A stretch of 64,000 nt of DNA from an uncultured SAR86 cluster bacterium (lineage in GTDB: Bacteria > Pseudomonadota > Gammaproteobacteria > Magnimaribacterales > AG-339-G14): the NCBI GenBank assembly GCA_902526045.1, contig CABZJI010000001.1:26482-90481 (forward strand), in the 5' to 3' direction. The notes beneath the pieces were generated by a model. The model was not told the origin of the DNA. It saw nothing but the letters and a program-made list of their open reading frames with translations, and searched no databases. The position numbers were made by a program, and so were the translations under genes. Shown in pieces: positions 60 through 57,558 of the stretch (position 1 is its first letter; every line of letters begins with the position of its first letter).

Positions 60-66
60 TAAGGAA

Positions 67-234
67 GTTTCCCAGATTACCGTTAACAAAACTAGACCTG
101 AACCGTCAAGTTCAGGGCGGGAAAATCACCCGCTATCAGGCTGCCCTTAGGGCGCTCAACAAGCAAGGTATCAAGTCCCTTGATTTTAATTATCGGCTCG
201 AGGTTTATTTTGTATATCGAATAACCCAGGAAAC
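67..234 (-). ncRNA. ssrS: 6S RNA
   Basis: Ends pair (GTTTCCTGG / CTGGGAAAC); contains GAGCCGATA and CCTGAAC-TTGACG-GTTCAGG elements typical of gammaproteobacterial 6S; zapA-ssrS-ygfA synteny. Confidence 0.9.
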
Positions 235-255
235 AAAGAAATTATAATTCTTATA

Positions 256-7599: not shown

Positions 7600-8736
7600 A
7601 TGAACTATGATGCCATGGTAATTGGAAGTGGAGTTGTTGGAACTGCAACTGCACTTGGTTTGGCAATGAAAGGTTTCAAGATTGGAATTGTTGATCAATC
7701 TTCATCTCCTCCTAATTCTCCAAGGCATCTTTCTGTAAATAAAAAAAGCTCAAAATTTTTGAGTTCCCTTGAGCTCTGGGATGAAGTTGTTACTTCATCT
7801 ATGCCATATTCAAAAATTCAAGTATGGGACCGAGAGGGAACAGGAAGGATAGAGTTTTCATCTGAAGACATAAATGAAAAATCACTGGGTTACATAATCA
7901 AAGAAGGTAACCTTCAAAAAGGTTTATTGAATCGATTGCAAGAATATGATGTAGATTTTTTTTGGTCTGAAAAATTAACTGAAATGAAAGAGGATAAAGA
8001 CAGTTTAATACTGTATTTGGATTCGGGTAAAAAAATTTTTAGTAAATCTATTTTAGGAGCTGATGGCCTTAATTCTACTGTTAGAAAATTAGGAAATTTC
8101 AAAGTTAAATCTTGGTCTTATGATCAGAGTGCAATTGTCGCTCAGATTGATTCTGATAGAGATCTAAATGGAATAATTAAGCAGTCATTCACAAAATATG
8201 GACCATTAGCCTTGTTACCAATAAATAAAAATCAAATGACAATGATTTGGTCTATCGATCAGGAAAAAATAAATGATTTTGTGTCTCTTAAGGATGAAGA
8301 ATTCATAAAAGTTTTAAAAAATGAATTTGGCGAAGAAATTTATAATCCATCAATTTCTTCTGAGAGGATTATCTTCCCTCTCCAGCATCTAACTGCGATT
8401 GGATTTGCAAAAAAGAAGATTGCTTTACTTGGTGATGCAGCCCATCATGTGCATCCACTCGCGGGGCTGGGTTTAAATTCTGGTCTAGGAGATGCTGAGT
8501 GTTTAGTGAAATTATTTGATAGCTATCCTGCAATTTCAGCAGAAAGTTTATTCAAAAAATATAATAATGAAAGACTACCTACCAATGTAGGTTTAGCCGC
8601 CGCAATGGAGTTATTTAAAAGAGGATTTGGAAATCAAGACATTTGGTTAAAAACTTTTAGAAATTCAGTTTTTAAGCTTGTAAATAGAGAAAAAGATATT
8701 AAAAAAATCTTTATTAACTTAGCAACTAATCTTTAA
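7600..8736 (+). CDS. UbiH/UbiI/UbiF family FAD-dependent hydroxylase
   Basis: VIGSGVVG FAD motif, GADGLNSTVR, LLGDAAHHVHPLAGLGLNSG; downstream of pepP. Confidence 0.88.
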   Translation: MNYDAMVIGSGVVGTATALGLAMKGFKIGIVDQSSSPPNSPRHLSVNKKSSKFLSSLELWDEVVTSSMPYSKIQVWDREGTGRIEFSSEDINEKSLGYIIKEGNLQKGLLNRLQEYDVDFFWSEKLTEMKEDKDSLILYLDSGKKIFSKSILGADGLNSTVRKLGNFKVKSWSYDQSAIVAQIDSDRDLNGIIKQSFTKYGPLALLPINKNQMTMIWSIDQEKINDFVSLKDEEFIKVLKNEFGEEIYNPSISSERIIFPLQHLTAIGFAKKKIALLGDAAHHVHPLAGLGLNSGLGDAECLVKLFDSYPAISAESLFKKYNNERLPTNVGLAAAMELFKRGFGNQDIWLKTFRNSVFKLVNREKDIKKIFINLATNL

Positions 8737-32562: not shown

Positions 32563-32638
32563 GGGCTAGTAGTTCAGTGGATAGAACGTCTGCCTCCGGA
32601 GCAGAAGGTCGCAGGTTTGAATCCTGCCTAGCCCACCA
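32563..32638 (+). tRNA. tRNA-Arg(CCG)
   Basis: GGGCTAG/CTAGCCC acceptor stem, TCTGC-CTCCGGA-GCAGA anticodon arm, GCAGG-TTTGAAT-CCTGC T arm, encoded CCA; 76 nt. Confidence 0.96.
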
Positions 32639-38070: not shown

Positions 38071-38696
38071 TATTGACTCCTTTCTAAGCCTACTAGATGA
38101 TCAACAACATCTAAGAGCTCTTCGGTCGGAATATCTCTTGATGCTTTTACTTTATATTTTCCGTTCACAATGAATGCTGGCACGCCCATGATCTCGTATT
38201 TTCTTCCGTACACATCAGCTGCATTAATGTTCGACTTTATTCGGAATGAATTACTGATGGCTTGGTACTTTTCAGGTTCGACTCCAAATGCATTAAAAAG
38301 TTCGGTAATCTCTCTTTCGCTAGTCAGAAACTTCCTATCCAGGTGGATAGATGTAAAAGCTGAGCCAATAATCTCTTCCATACCTAAAGCTTCTGCTGCA
38401 TAAAATAACTTAGCATGTTCTTTGGCAGGTGGATTCCAAGTCACCGGAACTCGCCAAAAATCTATGTCGTCATTAAGGTTTTTCTTCCAATCTCTTATCA
38501 AACCTTCTAATGTAAAACAGTGTCCGCAACCCAACCAAAAGAATTCAATGACTTCAATTTTTCCAGGATTACGCGTTTGGACTTCTTCGTCTAAGAATTG
38601 GTAATCAACACCAGGTCGATAATCTTTTGCGTTTAATACAAAAGAAAAAAGACTTATTAAAAGAACTAAAAAAGATTTAATAGAGACCTGATACAT
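38070..38696 (-). CDS. dsbA: Thiol:disulfide oxidoreductase DsbA
   Basis: EFFWLGCGHC, GVPAFIVNGKY. Confidence 0.93.
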   Translation of the reverse strand: MYQVSIKSFLVLLISLFSFVLNAKDYRPGVDYQFLDEEVQTRNPGKIEVIEFFWLGCGHCFTLEGLIRDWKKNLNDDIDFWRVPVTWNPPAKEHAKLFYAAEALGMEEIIGSAFTSIHLDRKFLTSEREITELFNAFGVEPEKYQAISNSFRIKSNINAADVYGRKYEIMGVPAFIVNGKYKVKASRDIPTEELLDVVDHLVGLERSQ

Positions 38697-39387: not shown

Positions 39388-39990
39388 ATGGAAACAATGA
39401 AATCAATATTACCTATTAACCTTGCGTTTGATCGTGTTGTTGGCAACCTTGCTCAGTTACCTTTTGATGAAGGAATCGAGATTGCCGTCTGCGGTCGCTC
39501 CAACTCAGGAAAATCCAGCATCATTAATGCCTTAGGTAATAATAAAAAGCTGGCAAAGACTTCAAAAACTCCAGGCCGAACCCAAACGGTAAATTTTTTT
39601 ACTATCAACGACGATCCACAAACTAAATTGGTTGACTTGCCTGGTTACGGTTACGCCAAAGCTTCTAAAAAAGATCAAAATAACTGGGCACAACTGGTGG
39701 AGAGTTATTTGCTCAGCAGACAGTGTCTAAGGAAAGTTGTGGTCATTATGGACATCAGACACCCGTTTAAGGAGGCAGATCTCGTTTTTCTCAACTGGTG
39801 CAAAGGGTTGCCTGTAAATGTTTTTATCTGTCTGAACAAAGCCGATAAATTATCCAACAATCAAGCAGGACAATCTTTAGCTTTAGCGCAACGTGCAGCG
39901 CAACAATTTCCAGAAATAGAACACCTGCAAATTTGTTCTGCCGAAAAGGGTAACGGACTCGAAGCATTAGGCTCCTTCATCACTTCATAA
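39388..39990 (+). CDS. engB: Ribosome biogenesis GTPase EngB/YihA
   Basis: GRSNSGKSS, SKTPGRTQ, DLPGYGY, NKADK. Confidence 0.95.
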   Translation: METMKSILPINLAFDRVVGNLAQLPFDEGIEIAVCGRSNSGKSSIINALGNNKKLAKTSKTPGRTQTVNFFTINDDPQTKLVDLPGYGYAKASKKDQNNWAQLVESYLLSRQCLRKVVVIMDIRHPFKEADLVFLNWCKGLPVNVFICLNKADKLSNNQAGQSLALAQRAAQQFPEIEHLQICSAEKGNGLEALGSFITS

Positions 39991-40022
39991 AAAAACCCCG
40001 GACATTGGGGTGGCCCGGGGTT
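39989..40022 (-). terminator. Intrinsic terminator
   Basis: AACCCCGG-13nt-CCGGGGTT followed by T-run on the minus strand. Confidence 0.8.
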
Positions 40023-40054
40023 AATAGGAGAGTAAACATGAAAAAATCTACCTA
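39989..40054 (-). ncRNA. Candidate ErsA/Spot42-position small RNA
   Basis: Between a sigmaE-like promoter and a U-tailed terminator in the polA-engB gap; 5' end estimated. Confidence 0.55.
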
Positions 40055-40058
40055 TACC

Positions 40059-40085
40059 TATGACCATCCAGAAGAATAAAAGTTC
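40059..40085 (-). promoter_or_regulatory. sigmaE (RpoE/AlgU)-type promoter
   Basis: GAACTT-N16-TCATA on the minus strand, just after the polA stop. Confidence 0.6.
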
Positions 40086-40102
40086 AATAAATGTGGAAAA
40101 AA

Positions 40103-42775
40103 TTAGTGGGCTTTGCCCCAGTTAGCTGCGACGCCACTTTCGACCACTAAGGGAACAGATAATTTTGTAACTTCAGACATGATTTGCTCTAAAGCTTTTA
40201 AAGTATTCTTAGTATAACTTTCAGGACATTCCACTATAACTTCGTCATGTACCTGTAAAATCAGATGAATATCTTTACCTGTACCTTTTATGTAATCGTG
40301 CATGTTAATCATGGCTAATTTCATGATGTCTGCAGCAGTTCCCTGCATCGGTGCATTGATAGCTGCTCGCTCTGCAGCCATGCGTGTTCTTCCTGAGTGA
40401 ATGCCCGGTAAATAAAGCCTTCTACCAAAAGCTGTTTCCACATAGCCCTGATCTTTTGCCTTGGCTTTCATCTCATCCATGTATATTTTTACTCTAGGAT
40501 ACTTACCAAAATAAGAAGCGATGTAATCAGCCGCCTCCGGGCGAGTCACTCCCAGAGCCTTGCCTAGGCCAAATGCTGACATTCCGTAAATAAGCCCAAA
40601 GTTTATGGCTTTTGCGTTCCGCCTAGCTTGCTCATCTGCAGAGCCAAACACTTCTTTGGCAGTTGCTGAGTGAATATCTTCGCCGTTTTCAAACGCCGTA
40701 ATTAGGCTCTCATCTTTGGAAAGATGCGCCATAATGCGAAGTTCTATTTGTGAGTAATCTATAGAGATTAAATCAAATCCTTTTGGGGCCACAAAAGCTT
40801 CTCGAATCATCCTGCCTTCCTCAGTTTTAATTGGAATATTTTGCAAATTAGGATCTGAAGAGGATAGTCTTCCTGTAGTAGTCACCGCCTGATGAAAGGT
40901 CGAATGCACCCTGCCGGTTTTCTCTGAAATCTGTTCAGGCAACCTGTCGGTGTAAGTTGATTTGAGTTTAGAAAGCGTTCTGTGTTCAAGAATAACCTGT
41001 GGGAGTTCGTATTGTTTTGCCAGCTCTTGCAAAACTGATTCCGCGGTTGAGGGCTGACCGCCTGGAGTCTTTTCAATCACCGGAATATTCATCTCATCAA
41101 ATAGAATTTCTTGGAGCTGTTTGGGTGAGGATAAATTAAATTCTTTGCCGGCCATGGAGAAGGCCTGCTCCTCTAGGCCATTGATGCGTTGGCCCAAATT
41201 TTTTGACTGTAGACTTAAAATATCAGAATCAATAACTGTACCTTTTTGTTCCATGTCTGATAAAACTGGAATTAAGGGCAGTTCAATATCTTTGAGAACT
41301 TTTTGCAGCGACTTTTGTTTCTTTAAATGCTCTCCAATGTTGTCATACATTTGCAATGTGATATCGGCATCCTCAGCAGCGTAATCGCTTGCGACATCAA
41401 GATTTACTTTGTTAAAGGTAAGCTGCTTAACTCCTTTTCCTGCCACTTCCTCAAAGGTTGTGGTTTTTAAATTGAGATAATGATTCGCCATATCGTCGAG
41501 GTTATGACGAGTTGCTGTTGAATCCAGAACGTAGGACATCATCATTGTGTCGTTTTCGATACTATTTAAATGAATGTCGTAATTAACCAGAACGTTTCGG
41601 TCGAATTTTATGTGTTGCCCAATAATTGGTTTCTCTTCCAAGATGGGTTTGAGTTTTTTTAAGCAAGCATCGCGATCTAATTGCGATGGTGCGTTATCGT
41701 AATCGTGGGCAAAGGGCAGATAAGCAGCTTCGCCCGCATCAACAGCAAAAGAAAGACCCACCAGATCAGCAGTGGTGAAATCCAATCGATCGGTTTCGCA
41801 ATCTAAAACGATTTGTTTTGCTTTGGCTAGTTTTTTTAGCCAATCGTCAAACGTTTTGTCATCCAAGATACAAGTGTACTTGCTGGTACTTTTTGGCTTA
41901 GAGGCTTTAGGCGCCTCTTTTAATAATGCTTTGAATTCAAGTTCCGTGAAAAGCTCATGCAATCTTTTTTCATCACGCTCCCCAACAGCTAAATCTTCAA
42001 TCCCAAAGTCCAATTTCACGTCTTTCTTAATTTCGGTGAGTTGGCGAGAAAGTTTTAATTGCTCAATGCCGGCACGTAAATATTCTCCAACCTTACCTTT
42101 GAATCCATCTGCTTTTTCAATGATGGTATCGATGTCGTTGTGTTCGGTTAACCAATTGACCGCAGTTTTCGGACCCACTTTTTCTACACCGGGAATGTTA
42201 TCTGAGGTATCGCCAACTAAGGCTAGATAATCAACGATTTGTCGAGGCTTCACACCGAATTTTTTTTGAACACCGTTTATATCGAGGACTTCGTTTTTCA
42301 TCGTGTTCACCAACTTGATGTTTTTGGTGACCAATTGAGCTAAATCTTTATCTCCTGTAGAGATGATCGTCGAGATACCTTTTTGTTCGGCCTCGGTAGC
42401 AAGCGTTCCAATGACGTCATCTGCCTCAACGCCTTCGACCACAAAGATTTTTATACCCAGCGCCTTGATCACTTCGTGAATCGGTTCAATTTGTGGAATC
42501 AAATCATCGGGCATGGCAGCTCTGTTGGCTTTGTAGTCCTCATACATTTCATGACGAAACGTATCGCCTTTAGCATCAAAAACCATGCCAACCGGAGCAT
42601 TAGGATGATCTTGCAAGATGCGCATCACCATGGTGACAACGCCGCGCACGGCACCCGTGGGCTGGCCAGTGGATGTCGTTAACGGCGGTAACGCATGATA
42701 AGCGCGGTAGACATAAGACGATCCATCGACCAATATAACTGAGTTGTTATCGTCTAAATTTTCAGGTTTGGCCAT
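40103..42775 (-). CDS. polA: DNA polymerase I
   Basis: LVDGSSY 5'-exo, LDCET 3'-exo, DYSQIELR, RNAKAINFGLIYG, QVHDE. Confidence 0.98.
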   Translation of the reverse strand: MAKPENLDDNNSVILVDGSSYVYRAYHALPPLTTSTGQPTGAVRGVVTMVMRILQDHPNAPVGMVFDAKGDTFRHEMYEDYKANRAAMPDDLIPQIEPIHEVIKALGIKIFVVEGVEADDVIGTLATEAEQKGISTIISTGDKDLAQLVTKNIKLVNTMKNEVLDINGVQKKFGVKPRQIVDYLALVGDTSDNIPGVEKVGPKTAVNWLTEHNDIDTIIEKADGFKGKVGEYLRAGIEQLKLSRQLTEIKKDVKLDFGIEDLAVGERDEKRLHELFTELEFKALLKEAPKASKPKSTSKYTCILDDKTFDDWLKKLAKAKQIVLDCETDRLDFTTADLVGLSFAVDAGEAAYLPFAHDYDNAPSQLDRDACLKKLKPILEEKPIIGQHIKFDRNVLVNYDIHLNSIENDTMMMSYVLDSTATRHNLDDMANHYLNLKTTTFEEVAGKGVKQLTFNKVNLDVASDYAAEDADITLQMYDNIGEHLKKQKSLQKVLKDIELPLIPVLSDMEQKGTVIDSDILSLQSKNLGQRINGLEEQAFSMAGKEFNLSSPKQLQEILFDEMNIPVIEKTPGGQPSTAESVLQELAKQYELPQVILEHRTLSKLKSTYTDRLPEQISEKTGRVHSTFHQAVTTTGRLSSSDPNLQNIPIKTEEGRMIREAFVAPKGFDLISIDYSQIELRIMAHLSKDESLITAFENGEDIHSATAKEVFGSADEQARRNAKAINFGLIYGMSAFGLGKALGVTRPEAADYIASYFGKYPRVKIYMDEMKAKAKDQGYVETAFGRRLYLPGIHSGRTRMAAERAAINAPMQGTAADIMKLAMINMHDYIKGTGKDIHLILQVHDEVIVECPESYTKNTLKALEQIMSEVTKLSVPLVVESGVAANWGKAH

Positions 42776-54457: not shown

Positions 54458-54524
54458 AGTCACAATTCTTACTCAAAAACTCTTTCTCCCATGCTAGTCT
54501 TATATTGATTATAGGAGATTTAAA

Positions 54525-55265
54525 ATGAAAAAAATAATATTACTTATGGCGTTAATTGGCCTACCAATTAGTCTTGTTGCTCAAGAAGTGCCCGATCCTC
54601 TCACTGCTGGATACAGTCAATGTAAATTTCTTCCTGGAAAAGGTATGAAGTCGCTTGAGGAGTATGTTGAACTTTTTAATGAGGAGTTGGACAAAGCGAA
54701 AATTGAAATGGGTTCAACAATGTTGGTGCCATTTTTTAAGACTGATATTTCAGAATATGATGTTTTATGGGTCAATACTTGGCAAGACAATACTCAAGCA
54801 GGCAAAGCAATGGATTGGTGGCTTTCTGATGCAGGGGAAAAATCAAGAGATGCTTGGCCAATGTTTTGCGATACTCAAATTCTAACTTATCAATGGTGGA
54901 TGGATGCAGTTACCGACCGAGATGATCTTGAGGGTCAAAATTTCAGCGCGTCTTATTACACATGTAACTTAAATGATGGGAAAAACCTGAGCGATGCTTA
55001 CTTAGCTTCCAATGCAGAACTTAAGCTAGGACATTCAAAAGGTTCTAAATCTAGCTCTGCGCTAATAAGACCTTCTTCAGGAACAAATGCTGCCGAATTT
55101 CCTTTTGATTTTGTGAGGTTGTTCACAAATCCTTCTTTTACCAATTGGGGTGAAGCTGTTGACGGTTGGTACGATGACGTAAGAGGATCAGCCGAAAGCA
55201 ATGCGGTAAGAGATGCTTTCGATTGCAACGGTTCAACTTTATTTTCTGGAAGAATAGTTCGTTAA
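54525..55265 (+). CDS. Secreted two-repeat hypothetical protein, type A
   Basis: Signal peptide; CKFLPGK..YDVLWVN..C and CNLNDGK..FDFVRLF..FDC halves; AGGAG SD. Confidence 0.8.
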   Translation: MKKIILLMALIGLPISLVAQEVPDPLTAGYSQCKFLPGKGMKSLEEYVELFNEELDKAKIEMGSTMLVPFFKTDISEYDVLWVNTWQDNTQAGKAMDWWLSDAGEKSRDAWPMFCDTQILTYQWWMDAVTDRDDLEGQNFSASYYTCNLNDGKNLSDAYLASNAELKLGHSKGSKSSSALIRPSSGTNAAEFPFDFVRLFTNPSFTNWGEAVDGWYDDVRGSAESNAVRDAFDCNGSTLFSGRIVR

Positions 55266-56771: not shown

Positions 56772-57479
56772 TTATTCAGCTGTATAAAGAATTTCACACT
56801 CATCATAGCTATCATCAATGATAGTTCCTAAACTGAGAAGTTTTTGATACATTTCAGCCCAGGTTACATTGCCAGCAAAAAAATCATCTGCGAATTTCCC
56901 ATGTTCACCTGGAGTATCTGTTAATCCTCTAACCATGTATTGATTTGCAACTGCTTCTTCTGCACCGCCACCTAATGGTTGAAAAATTCCCAAAACAAAG
57001 CCAGGGTTTGATTTCTGAAGTTCTTGCTCAAACATGGTAGCAACTTGAATGTATTCTAATAAGTTCTCAGGTTGCACGATAACTCTGTTGACTCTTTCGA
57101 AACTCTTCGGTCTTATGTCGAACGACTTAAGTGGTTTCCAAAAAGATGAATAAAGAGGTGTCCTCATTTGTTTCAAGGCGAAAGGAGCAGAGTAGGGATC
57201 GTAGGCAGTTGTATTATCCATTGCCTCCTCCATGCTAGCAAAAGCTTGCCATACAAACATTTCTCCAGTGTATCTACTTCCAGCTCTTGTAATGCATGTA
57301 CCGGCAGCAACCGGATTTTGATTTCCTAAAAGTTGTGAATTCTCTTTCAGATAATCAGCATATTCTGTTGGATTTTCAGCTTTAACGTGAAAAGTTGAGA
57401 AGGCTCCATCTCCAGGCGCATTCTGCGCAAAAATAAAACTGGATAAAGCCAGCATTGCCATAAGTTGTAAAAATTTCAT
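56772..57479 (-). CDS. Secreted hypothetical protein, paralog of 56024-56755
   Basis: Signal peptide, GAFSTFHVKAENP..CEILYTAE; AGGAGAG SD. Confidence 0.8.
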   Translation of the reverse strand: MKFLQLMAMLALSSFIFAQNAPGDGAFSTFHVKAENPTEYADYLKENSQLLGNQNPVAAGTCITRAGSRYTGEMFVWQAFASMEEAMDNTTAYDPYSAPFALKQMRTPLYSSFWKPLKSFDIRPKSFERVNRVIVQPENLLEYIQVATMFEQELQKSNPGFVLGIFQPLGGGAEEAVANQYMVRGLTDTPGEHGKFADDFFAGNVTWAEMYQKLLSLGTIIDDSYDECEILYTAE

Positions 57480-57558
57480 ATTTCTCTCCTAAAAATTTTT
57501 TACGGCCTTTAACTATAGTGAAAAATCAATTGTTATGGAATGCTAAAATGAAAGATAT

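Follow-up and report, generated by a model that had tools for sequence, protein, structure and literature searches.

The window analysed here is a 64-kb stretch of DNA from a SAR86 cluster bacterium, a group that is now ranked as the order Magnimaribacterales. It contains the GTPase gene engB (39388–39990, plus strand), whose product is 92–95% identical to EngB of SAR86 single-cell genomes, and facing it the gene polA (40103–42775, minus strand). The two genes are convergent and are separated by a gap of 112 nucleotides (nt), which on its minus strand carries a candidate small-RNA gene that is likewise convergent with engB. In the order of the minus strand, a promoter-like sequence (40086–40059) is followed by about 65 nt (40053–39989) that end in a GC-rich hairpin and a run of seven U residues. 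An earlier reading of this DNA (the original prediction) had described GAACTT-N16-TCATA, about 65 nt, a GC stem, a C-rich loop and a U-tail, and had proposed an envelope-stress RNA that represses exported proteins; the sequence elements are present exactly as it described them.

The promoter reads TGAACTTTT-N12-GGTCATA. GAACTT, preceded by a T, occupies positions 40085–40080, and TCATA, preceded by a G, positions 40063–40059. The -35 element TGAACTTTT (40078–40086) and the -10 element GTCATA (40059–40064; consensus GGTCAAA) are thus set apart by a 16-nt spacer (40079–40064), all on the minus strand. Promoters recognised by sigmaE of Escherichia coli have GGAACTTTT as the -35 and (T/C)GGTCAAAA as the -10 motif, strongly prefer a 16-nt spacer, and have a discriminator of 5/6 nt and a purine start (Rhodius et al., PMC1312014). 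The SAR86 motif agrees with both of these motifs and with the preferred spacing, and by the E. coli rule for discriminator and purine the start of transcription is predicted at A40053 or G40052. No sigma70-like promoter was predicted between 39300 and 40800, a scan that did not include CRP sites. Sigma E-dependent small RNAs as a class are recognised by a GGAACTT-N16-TCAAA promoter together with an intrinsic terminator, and at the level of sequence both are found here, which assigns the promoter to the sigmaE class.

Strong support for a promoter with a product comes from closely related genomes. Twelve species-level relatives have the same convergent arrangement with a gap of 111–114 nt, giving a comparison of 13 species for the genus of the window. 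A 13-nt block, ATTGAACTTTTAT, is invariant in all of them, whereas 8 of the next 11 spacer columns are variable, and the 69-nt core that begins with GTCATA and takes in the whole terminator stem then has only three variable sites. In the same 13 genomes the third-codon positions of the adjoining ends of engB and polA vary at 64% and 56%, respectively, and the 40 nt that lead from the -10 element to the hairpin change as little as first and second codon positions do. A promoter with its transcript would be expected to look like this, with conserved boxes that hold an unconstrained spacer of constant length between them and a conserved transcribed region behind them.

In the other SAR86 clades EngB is only 44–58% identical, and polA is not convergent with engB; among loci L012–L039 of these clades it was observed on the same strand downstream of engB, either directly or one gene further. 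Every one of the other clades sampled has the sequence GAAC(T/C)(T/A)-N16-TCnn(A/T), followed after 60–80 nt by a hairpin, on the opposite strand directly after the engB stop codon. Of the 38 SAR86 relatives examined, among them the cultured isolate HIMB1674 (L014), every one has the unit of promoter and terminator next to the engB stop. None of the 39 SAR86 sequences departs from G, A, A, C and T in the -35 element or from G, T and C in the -10 element, and the spacer, free in sequence, has exactly 16 nt in every one. A covariance model of the RNA, R1, scores 60 bits at the locus in the window and 41–86 bits in the other clades. When 476 kb of SAR86 DNA was searched on both strands, the strict promoter motif was found at the engB site in 38 of 38 loci, with about two chance matches expected. 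On this comparative evidence the small-RNA gene beside engB is real and is conserved across the SAR86 order, so that the minus-strand gene with a sigmaE-type promoter that had been proposed from a single sequence holds well beyond it in both promoter and terminator.

A simpler explanation of the locus would be that it is only the 3' untranslated region of polA with an intrinsic terminator that also terminates engB, the promoter-like motif having arisen by chance. Inspection of the sequence and a terminator scan revealed no terminator between the polA stop codon (40103) and the promoter of the RNA, and since there is also none between that stop codon and the hairpin, polA transcripts must end at the terminator of the RNA in the genus of the window. 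In addition, GAACTT-N15-17-TCNNA by itself has five matches in the window where 3.5 are expected, a difference that is not significant. However, the unit stays beside engB where polA lies in tandem with it or is separated from it, and therefore is not simply a polA terminator. The invariant GAACT and GTC at constant distance, and the conservation of the 40 nt that precede the hairpin, also speak against it, and we consider this explanation very unlikely.

The predicted RNA of about 65 nt (39989–40053, minus strand) folds into two hairpins joined by an 8-nt linker. Taking 40053 as the start, the 65-nt molecule has a folding energy of -21.6 kcal/mol (z = -3.4), and none of 200 shuffled sequences was as stable. 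Between the -10 element and the terminator hairpin the minus strand reads AGGUAGAUUUUUUCAUGUUUACUCUCCUAUUAA. The 5' part of the RNA forms the weak 5' hairpin stem-loop 1 (SL1; 40031–40052), in which GGUAGAU pairs with GUUUACU around the loop UUUUUCAU in both the minimum free energy and the centroid fold; it includes a run of six U residues (U6, 40041–40046) and an anti-start CAU (40038–40040). A C/U-rich region complementary to Shine-Dalgarno sequences follows (40023–40032, with CUCUCCUA at 40025–40032), which falls mostly in the unpaired linker CUCCUAUU of the predicted fold. The terminator hairpin has 10 bp (39994–40022) and a loop CACCCCAAU (40004–40012) that holds the motif CCCCAA, and its U7 tail (39989–39995) overlaps the engB stop codon.

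The terminator helix is both paired and compensated across SAR86. Depending on the analysis, 97.5–98% of the cells are paired and compensatory changes are seen in 5–7 of the 10 pairs. In alignment A1, which consists of 28 distinct SAR86 sequences, 6 of the 10 pairs are compensated, and the helix outperforms all 500 column shuffles and all slid registers. Unguided RNAalifold analysis returned the same helix with 7 of 10 pairs compensated, and a model-based realignment agrees with it. The loop motif CCCCAA is retained in 27 of the 28 sequences even though the stem below it changes. The terminator scan called the hairpin on the minus strand only, and the helix contains 27 G·U cells versus a single A·C cell; this excess shows that the fold is selected in the RNA of the minus strand rather than in the transcript of engB, and so fixes the strand of the gene as well as its terminator. 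The SL1 helix is less well supported, with 66% pairing across clades.

The 5' part of the RNA is more changeable between clades. The original prediction had pointed to a 23-nt 5' stretch complementary to a Shine-Dalgarno sequence, an AUG and the six A residues after it, and conservation in relatives had been named as its test: the promoter passes in 38 of 38 relatives, but the 23-nt seed is conserved only in the 13 species of the window's genus. Other clades share a short C/U-rich anti-Shine-Dalgarno motif and the CCCCAA loop, most of them having CUCC, CCCU or CCCC at the position equivalent to CUCUCCUA. In several clades (L017, L018, L034 and L036–L038; alignment A2) the predicted 5' end of the RNA is GUAGGGUAA.

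Minus-strand open reading frames (ORFs) that span the RNA were discarded as candidates; the one of 68 residues (39861–40067) begins in the variable promoter spacer. On the plus strand lies an ORF for the 13-residue peptide MKKSTYTYDHPEE (40039–40080) with a strong Shine-Dalgarno sequence, AGGAGA, 7 nt upstream of its ATG. If transcripts read through from engB, this peptide could be the actual product of the locus, and the minus-strand RNA would then be its cis-antisense regulator or nothing. All 13 species have this ORF at the same length and with its stop codon, and the hairpin would be a poor terminator on the plus strand, where it is followed by UUAAU. Nevertheless, not one of the 27 nt of the first nine codons varies, meaning that there is no synonymous change, versus variation at about 60% of the third positions of the neighbouring genes, while the last four codons, which fall within the promoter spacer, are variable at every codon position. 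Moreover, no Shine-Dalgarno sequence with ATG exists at this place in the other SAR86 clades despite conservation of the unit, and the G·U pairs assign the selected structure to the minus strand. When an RNA is the mirror image of a ribosome-binding site, the opposite strand will resemble one; we judge this ORF to be non-coding, and a peptide product to be most improbable.

The constant association with engB could also mean that the RNA acts mainly in cis. Being fully complementary to engB read-through transcripts, it might tune 3'-end formation or stability of engB (and, in the window's genus, of polA) by convergent transcription or by duplex formation. The RNA gene indeed overlaps or abuts the engB stop codon in every SAR86 clade and is linked to engB whatever the other neighbour is. 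A cis role would, however, require neither the invariant CCCCAA loop nor the C/U-rich motifs, and deletion of ersA, which occupies the corresponding gap in Pseudomonas, had no polar effect on the flanking genes. We regard a mainly cis-acting RNA as unlikely.

We propose that the locus is an independently transcribed, minus-strand gene for a small RNA of about 65 nt, which has an RpoE/AlgU-type promoter and probably pairs with translation-initiation regions. An extracytoplasmic-function sigma factor of the RpoE/AlgU type would read the promoter and start transcription near 40053, and transcription would terminate at the hairpin and U7 tail abutting the engB stop codon, the same hairpin serving to end polA transcripts in the genus of the window. 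The C/U-rich anti-Shine-Dalgarno stretch would base-pair with initiation regions of mRNAs, and in the window's genus the pairing region would extend to the anti-AUG and U6. Such pairing would block ribosome binding, making repression the expected mode of action, and the promoter class suggests that the RNA would be induced by envelope stress. The nearly invariant CCCCAA terminator loop would be a second conserved functional site, for a partner RNA or protein.

Potential partners were sought among 70 start regions (-35 to +24), taken from rough gene calls in the window, by calculating how the 5' part of the RNA pairs with each. Best among them is the start of the gene at 57479, encoding an exported protein of 235 residues, which reads TAGGAGAGAAATATGAAA. 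The predicted site (57474–57491, minus strand) ranks first of 70 with -25.5 kcal/mol and consists of 8 bp, a one-base bulge and 10 bp including one G·U pair. As a control, the antisense of each gene's own start region was used as a pseudo-RNA (n = 70). The best off-target scores of these mirror RNAs averaged -17.2 ± 2.5 kcal/mol with a minimum of -23.6, and since none of the 70 reaches -25.5, the match to the 57479 gene is better than generic complementarity to Shine-Dalgarno and AUG sequences. The start of the gene at 54525, for an exported protein of 246 residues, reads ATAGGAGATTTAAAATGAAAAAA and shares 20 of 23 positions with the complement of the RNA; its predicted site (54511–54533, plus strand) scores -18.1 kcal/mol and ranks fourth, after a catalase-peroxidase gene (second) and an aldolase gene (third). 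Both start regions are as quoted in the original prediction, and its count of 20 of 23 is correct. Its specific choice of targets is weakly supported, and pairing with either gene is a hypothesis. The N-termini of both proteins resemble signal peptides.

Several observations weigh against the proposed role. In orthologues of the 57479 gene, taken from a metagenome scan that yielded 10 loci and was too small for a test of target-site conservation, the Shine-Dalgarno sequence and AUG persist but are joined by a spacer that drifts, and pairing energies fall to -22.2 and -20.9 kcal/mol. Only one of the 70 genes in the window starts with ATGAAAAAA, the long 5' seed is confined to one genus, and neither proposed target matches a Pfam or NCBIfam family, which weakens the case for them. 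The complement of the loop, UUGGGG, occurs in no Shine-Dalgarno or upstream leader region of the window; its few matches near start codons lie inside coding sequence (+20 to +47). A position weight matrix derived from the 39 promoters identified no further convincing sigmaE-type promoter in the window, the runner-up scoring 17.0, within the range of shuffled sequences. Finally, rpoE, rseA and hfq were not found within the window or the compared loci, and tblastn with E. coli RpoE, Hfq and ProQ gave no match in the same set of sequences, to which alone these negatives apply.

Between 54525 and 58374 lie four adjacent ORFs of 235–271 residues, the two proposed targets among them; all have signal-peptide-like N-termini, and none belongs to a Pfam or NCBIfam family.

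The near-invariance of the terminator loop raises the question of whether the RNA chiefly binds a protein or a single G-rich RNA through CCCCAA, anti-Shine-Dalgarno pairing of the 5' part being secondary. This would account for a loop that persists on a stem rewritten by compensatory changes, and the ErsA consensus has a similar C-rich terminator loop, as do the RNAs that Thiohalomonadaceae carry in this gap. Against it stand the lack of any partner found, with UUGGGG missing from the leader regions of the window, and the fact that we know of no bacterial protein that recognises a CCCCAA loop. We hold a role chiefly of the loop to be rather unlikely, and favour a small RNA that pairs with initiation regions.

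Elsewhere in the Gammaproteobacteria the polA-engB gap hosts the small RNAs Spot 42 and ErsA, as the original prediction had stated and as both gap sequences and the literature confirm. In Pseudomonas this gap contains ErsA, a sigma22-dependent RNA whose pairing domain is U-rich and unstructured (PMC8575079, PMC5819304). The SAR86 RNA resembles it (Rfam Pseudomon-1, RF01719) in its location, here on the polA strand, in its RpoE/AlgU (sigma22)-type promoter, as far as the sequence tells, and in a U-rich single-stranded pairing region. The terminators are also alike, both having the form AACCCCGG...CCGGGGU(n) with a C-rich loop, which is CCCCUCCCCAUA in the ErsA consensus versus CACCCCAAU in the SAR86 RNA. 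The two differ in architecture, ErsA having three stem-loops, of which SL1 and SL2 are set apart by a long unstructured U-rich domain, and the SAR86 RNA two hairpins, as well as in size (132 nt for ErsA versus about 65 nt). The ErsA targets algC, oprD, amrZ and anr are not relevant in SAR86.

Rfam models, which had been suggested as a check, gave no match in the engB/polA gap at gathering thresholds, neither for ErsA nor for Spot 42. Scans by E-value returned only sub-threshold matches, mostly to the terminator part. The full-length ErsA model aligns to 39980–40077 (minus strand) with 20.7 bits (E 0.04–0.08), below its gathering score of 50, and most of the likeness resides in the terminator (AACCCCGG.C ... 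CCCCA ... G.CCGGGGU(n)). With this model, two Thiohalomonadaceae genomes give 28.2 bits (L043) and 24.3 bits (L046) for RNAs in the same gap, and the other SAR86 clades give no match. The SAR86 RNA is therefore outside the ErsA and Spot 42 families as defined by Rfam; it is the positional counterpart of ErsA, and homology between the two is plausible.

Spot 42 (spf) is encoded on the polA strand of the same gap, as seen in L064 and L074 and as known from the literature, and its short forms share with the SAR86 RNA the two-hairpin layout and a terminator of the type UAACCCCGG...CCGGGGU(n). Unlike the SAR86 RNA, for which no sigma70-like promoter is predicted, Spot 42 has a CRP-repressed sigma70 promoter, and it lies proximal to polA where both RNAs occur. 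One could imagine that the SAR86 RNA is a shortened Spot 42 orthologue whose CRP-controlled sigma70 promoter was replaced by one of the sigmaE type. In four Alteromonadales gaps model R1 weakly matches the short Spot 42-like RNAs (21–25 bits, E 0.016–0.14), and the 5' end of Spot 42, GUAGGGUACAG, resembles the GUAGGGUAA of several SAR86 clades. R1 also gives a chance-level match of 23.7 bits inside a coding gene, however, so the resemblance to the short Spot 42-like RNAs is a lead only. In addition, the Rfam Spot_42 model (RF00021, gathering score 80 bits) has no match in the gap at E <= 10, and in Alteromonadaceae with both RNAs it is the unit with the sigmaE-type promoter that adjoins engB, as in SAR86. 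Descent from Spot 42 thus appears quite unlikely.

That chance-level match of R1 (7741–7805, minus strand) is antisense within a FAD-monooxygenase-like ORF and combines a hairpin with a terminator-like sequence, and it has no promoter motif; it was rejected as a second copy, and R1 identified no paralogue of the RNA in the window.

Convergent polA/engB gaps of 100 nt or more were compared in 21 gammaproteobacterial loci outside SAR86. Of these, 10 have the strict sigmaE-type motif on the polA strand, and a relaxed form adds four or five loci; on the engB strand it was found in none of the 21. A broader, more tentative idea is that the RNA adjacent to engB is one ancient sigmaE-controlled small RNA of the Gammaproteobacteria (an ErsA superfamily), in which the C-rich terminator loop CCCCA[A/U], and not the 5' seed, would be the truly conserved effector. 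We consider this possible, though doubtful. If true, the RNA would have been kept even in the streamlined genomes of SAR86 (1–1.7 Mb), including that of HIMB1674, and its 5' arm would have been rewritten lineage by lineage, becoming in the genus of the window a full mirror image of a ribosome-binding site. In any case, the polA/engB gap has an RNA unit of the sigmaE type far beyond Pseudomonas, which sets ErsA in a much wider evolutionary frame.

MicA, RybB, MicL, VrrA and MicV are introduced in the literature as sigmaE-dependent small RNAs of enterobacteria and Vibrio (PMC1804206, PMC6694218). The SAR86 RNA is like them in promoter class and in being a short RNA with an intrinsic terminator, but has no sequence relationship to any of them. 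Their targets are mRNAs of outer-membrane proteins and lipoproteins, whereas the best predicted partners of the SAR86 RNA encode exported proteins of unknown family. MicL shares its terminator with the upstream gene cutC, just as the SAR86 RNA shares one with upstream polA in the genus of the window.

SAR86 bacteria combine small genomes with an outer membrane rich in TonB-dependent transporters. A small RNA of SAR86 has been noted by Dupont et al., but it is a different RNA, from a sugar-utilisation region. It was the only SAR86 regulatory RNA found in the literature searched, which describes neither the sequence of the present RNA nor a SAR86 rpoE. A small RNA of the sigmaE type in all SAR86 clades sampled would open a way into envelope-stress control in this group, and as the only cultured isolate carries the RNA, its role is directly testable.

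Other polA/engB gaps showed further arrangements. In gaps of the Alteromonadaceae type (L063, L068, L075, L077 and L079) a Spot 42-like RNA of about 75 nt (GUAGGGUACAGAGG...) scores below the Spot_42 gathering score. In most of these gaps it is followed by a second short RNA, nearest to engB, with a sigmaE-type promoter and a 5' region UGUGUGUUUUCUC; L068 has two such units. On its polA strand, the gap of L043 contains a tandem pair of units that have sigmaE-type promoters. Both units have several C-rich hairpin loops, for example CUCUCCUCCCCAAUUA, and one unit is the match to the ErsA model at 28 bits. Two loci carry unexpected labels: L062 is named as a Klebsiella pneumoniae metagenome-assembled genome, but its gap is like that of Pseudohongiellaceae (L051), and L068 is named as Flavobacterium sp., but its gap is like that of Alteromonadaceae (L075). 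Both are probably mis-binned or contaminant sequences.

In the 476 kb of SAR86 DNA, the sole site of the strict promoter motif other than those at engB lies inside a dsbA-like gene of the window's genus. In the window, an exact motif GAACTT-N16-(G)TCGAA is located at 38277–38303 (minus strand) within the dsbA-like ORF, 233 nt upstream of a CitE/RipC-like lyase gene, and is kept in 11 of 12 close relatives. It was not accepted as a second promoter, as its conservation can be explained by coding constraint; an internal promoter and coding constraint are both possible. The window's only Rfam matches above the gathering threshold are a 6S RNA (65–235, minus strand; 50 bits, gathering score 46.4) and a tRNA gene (32563–32635, plus strand).

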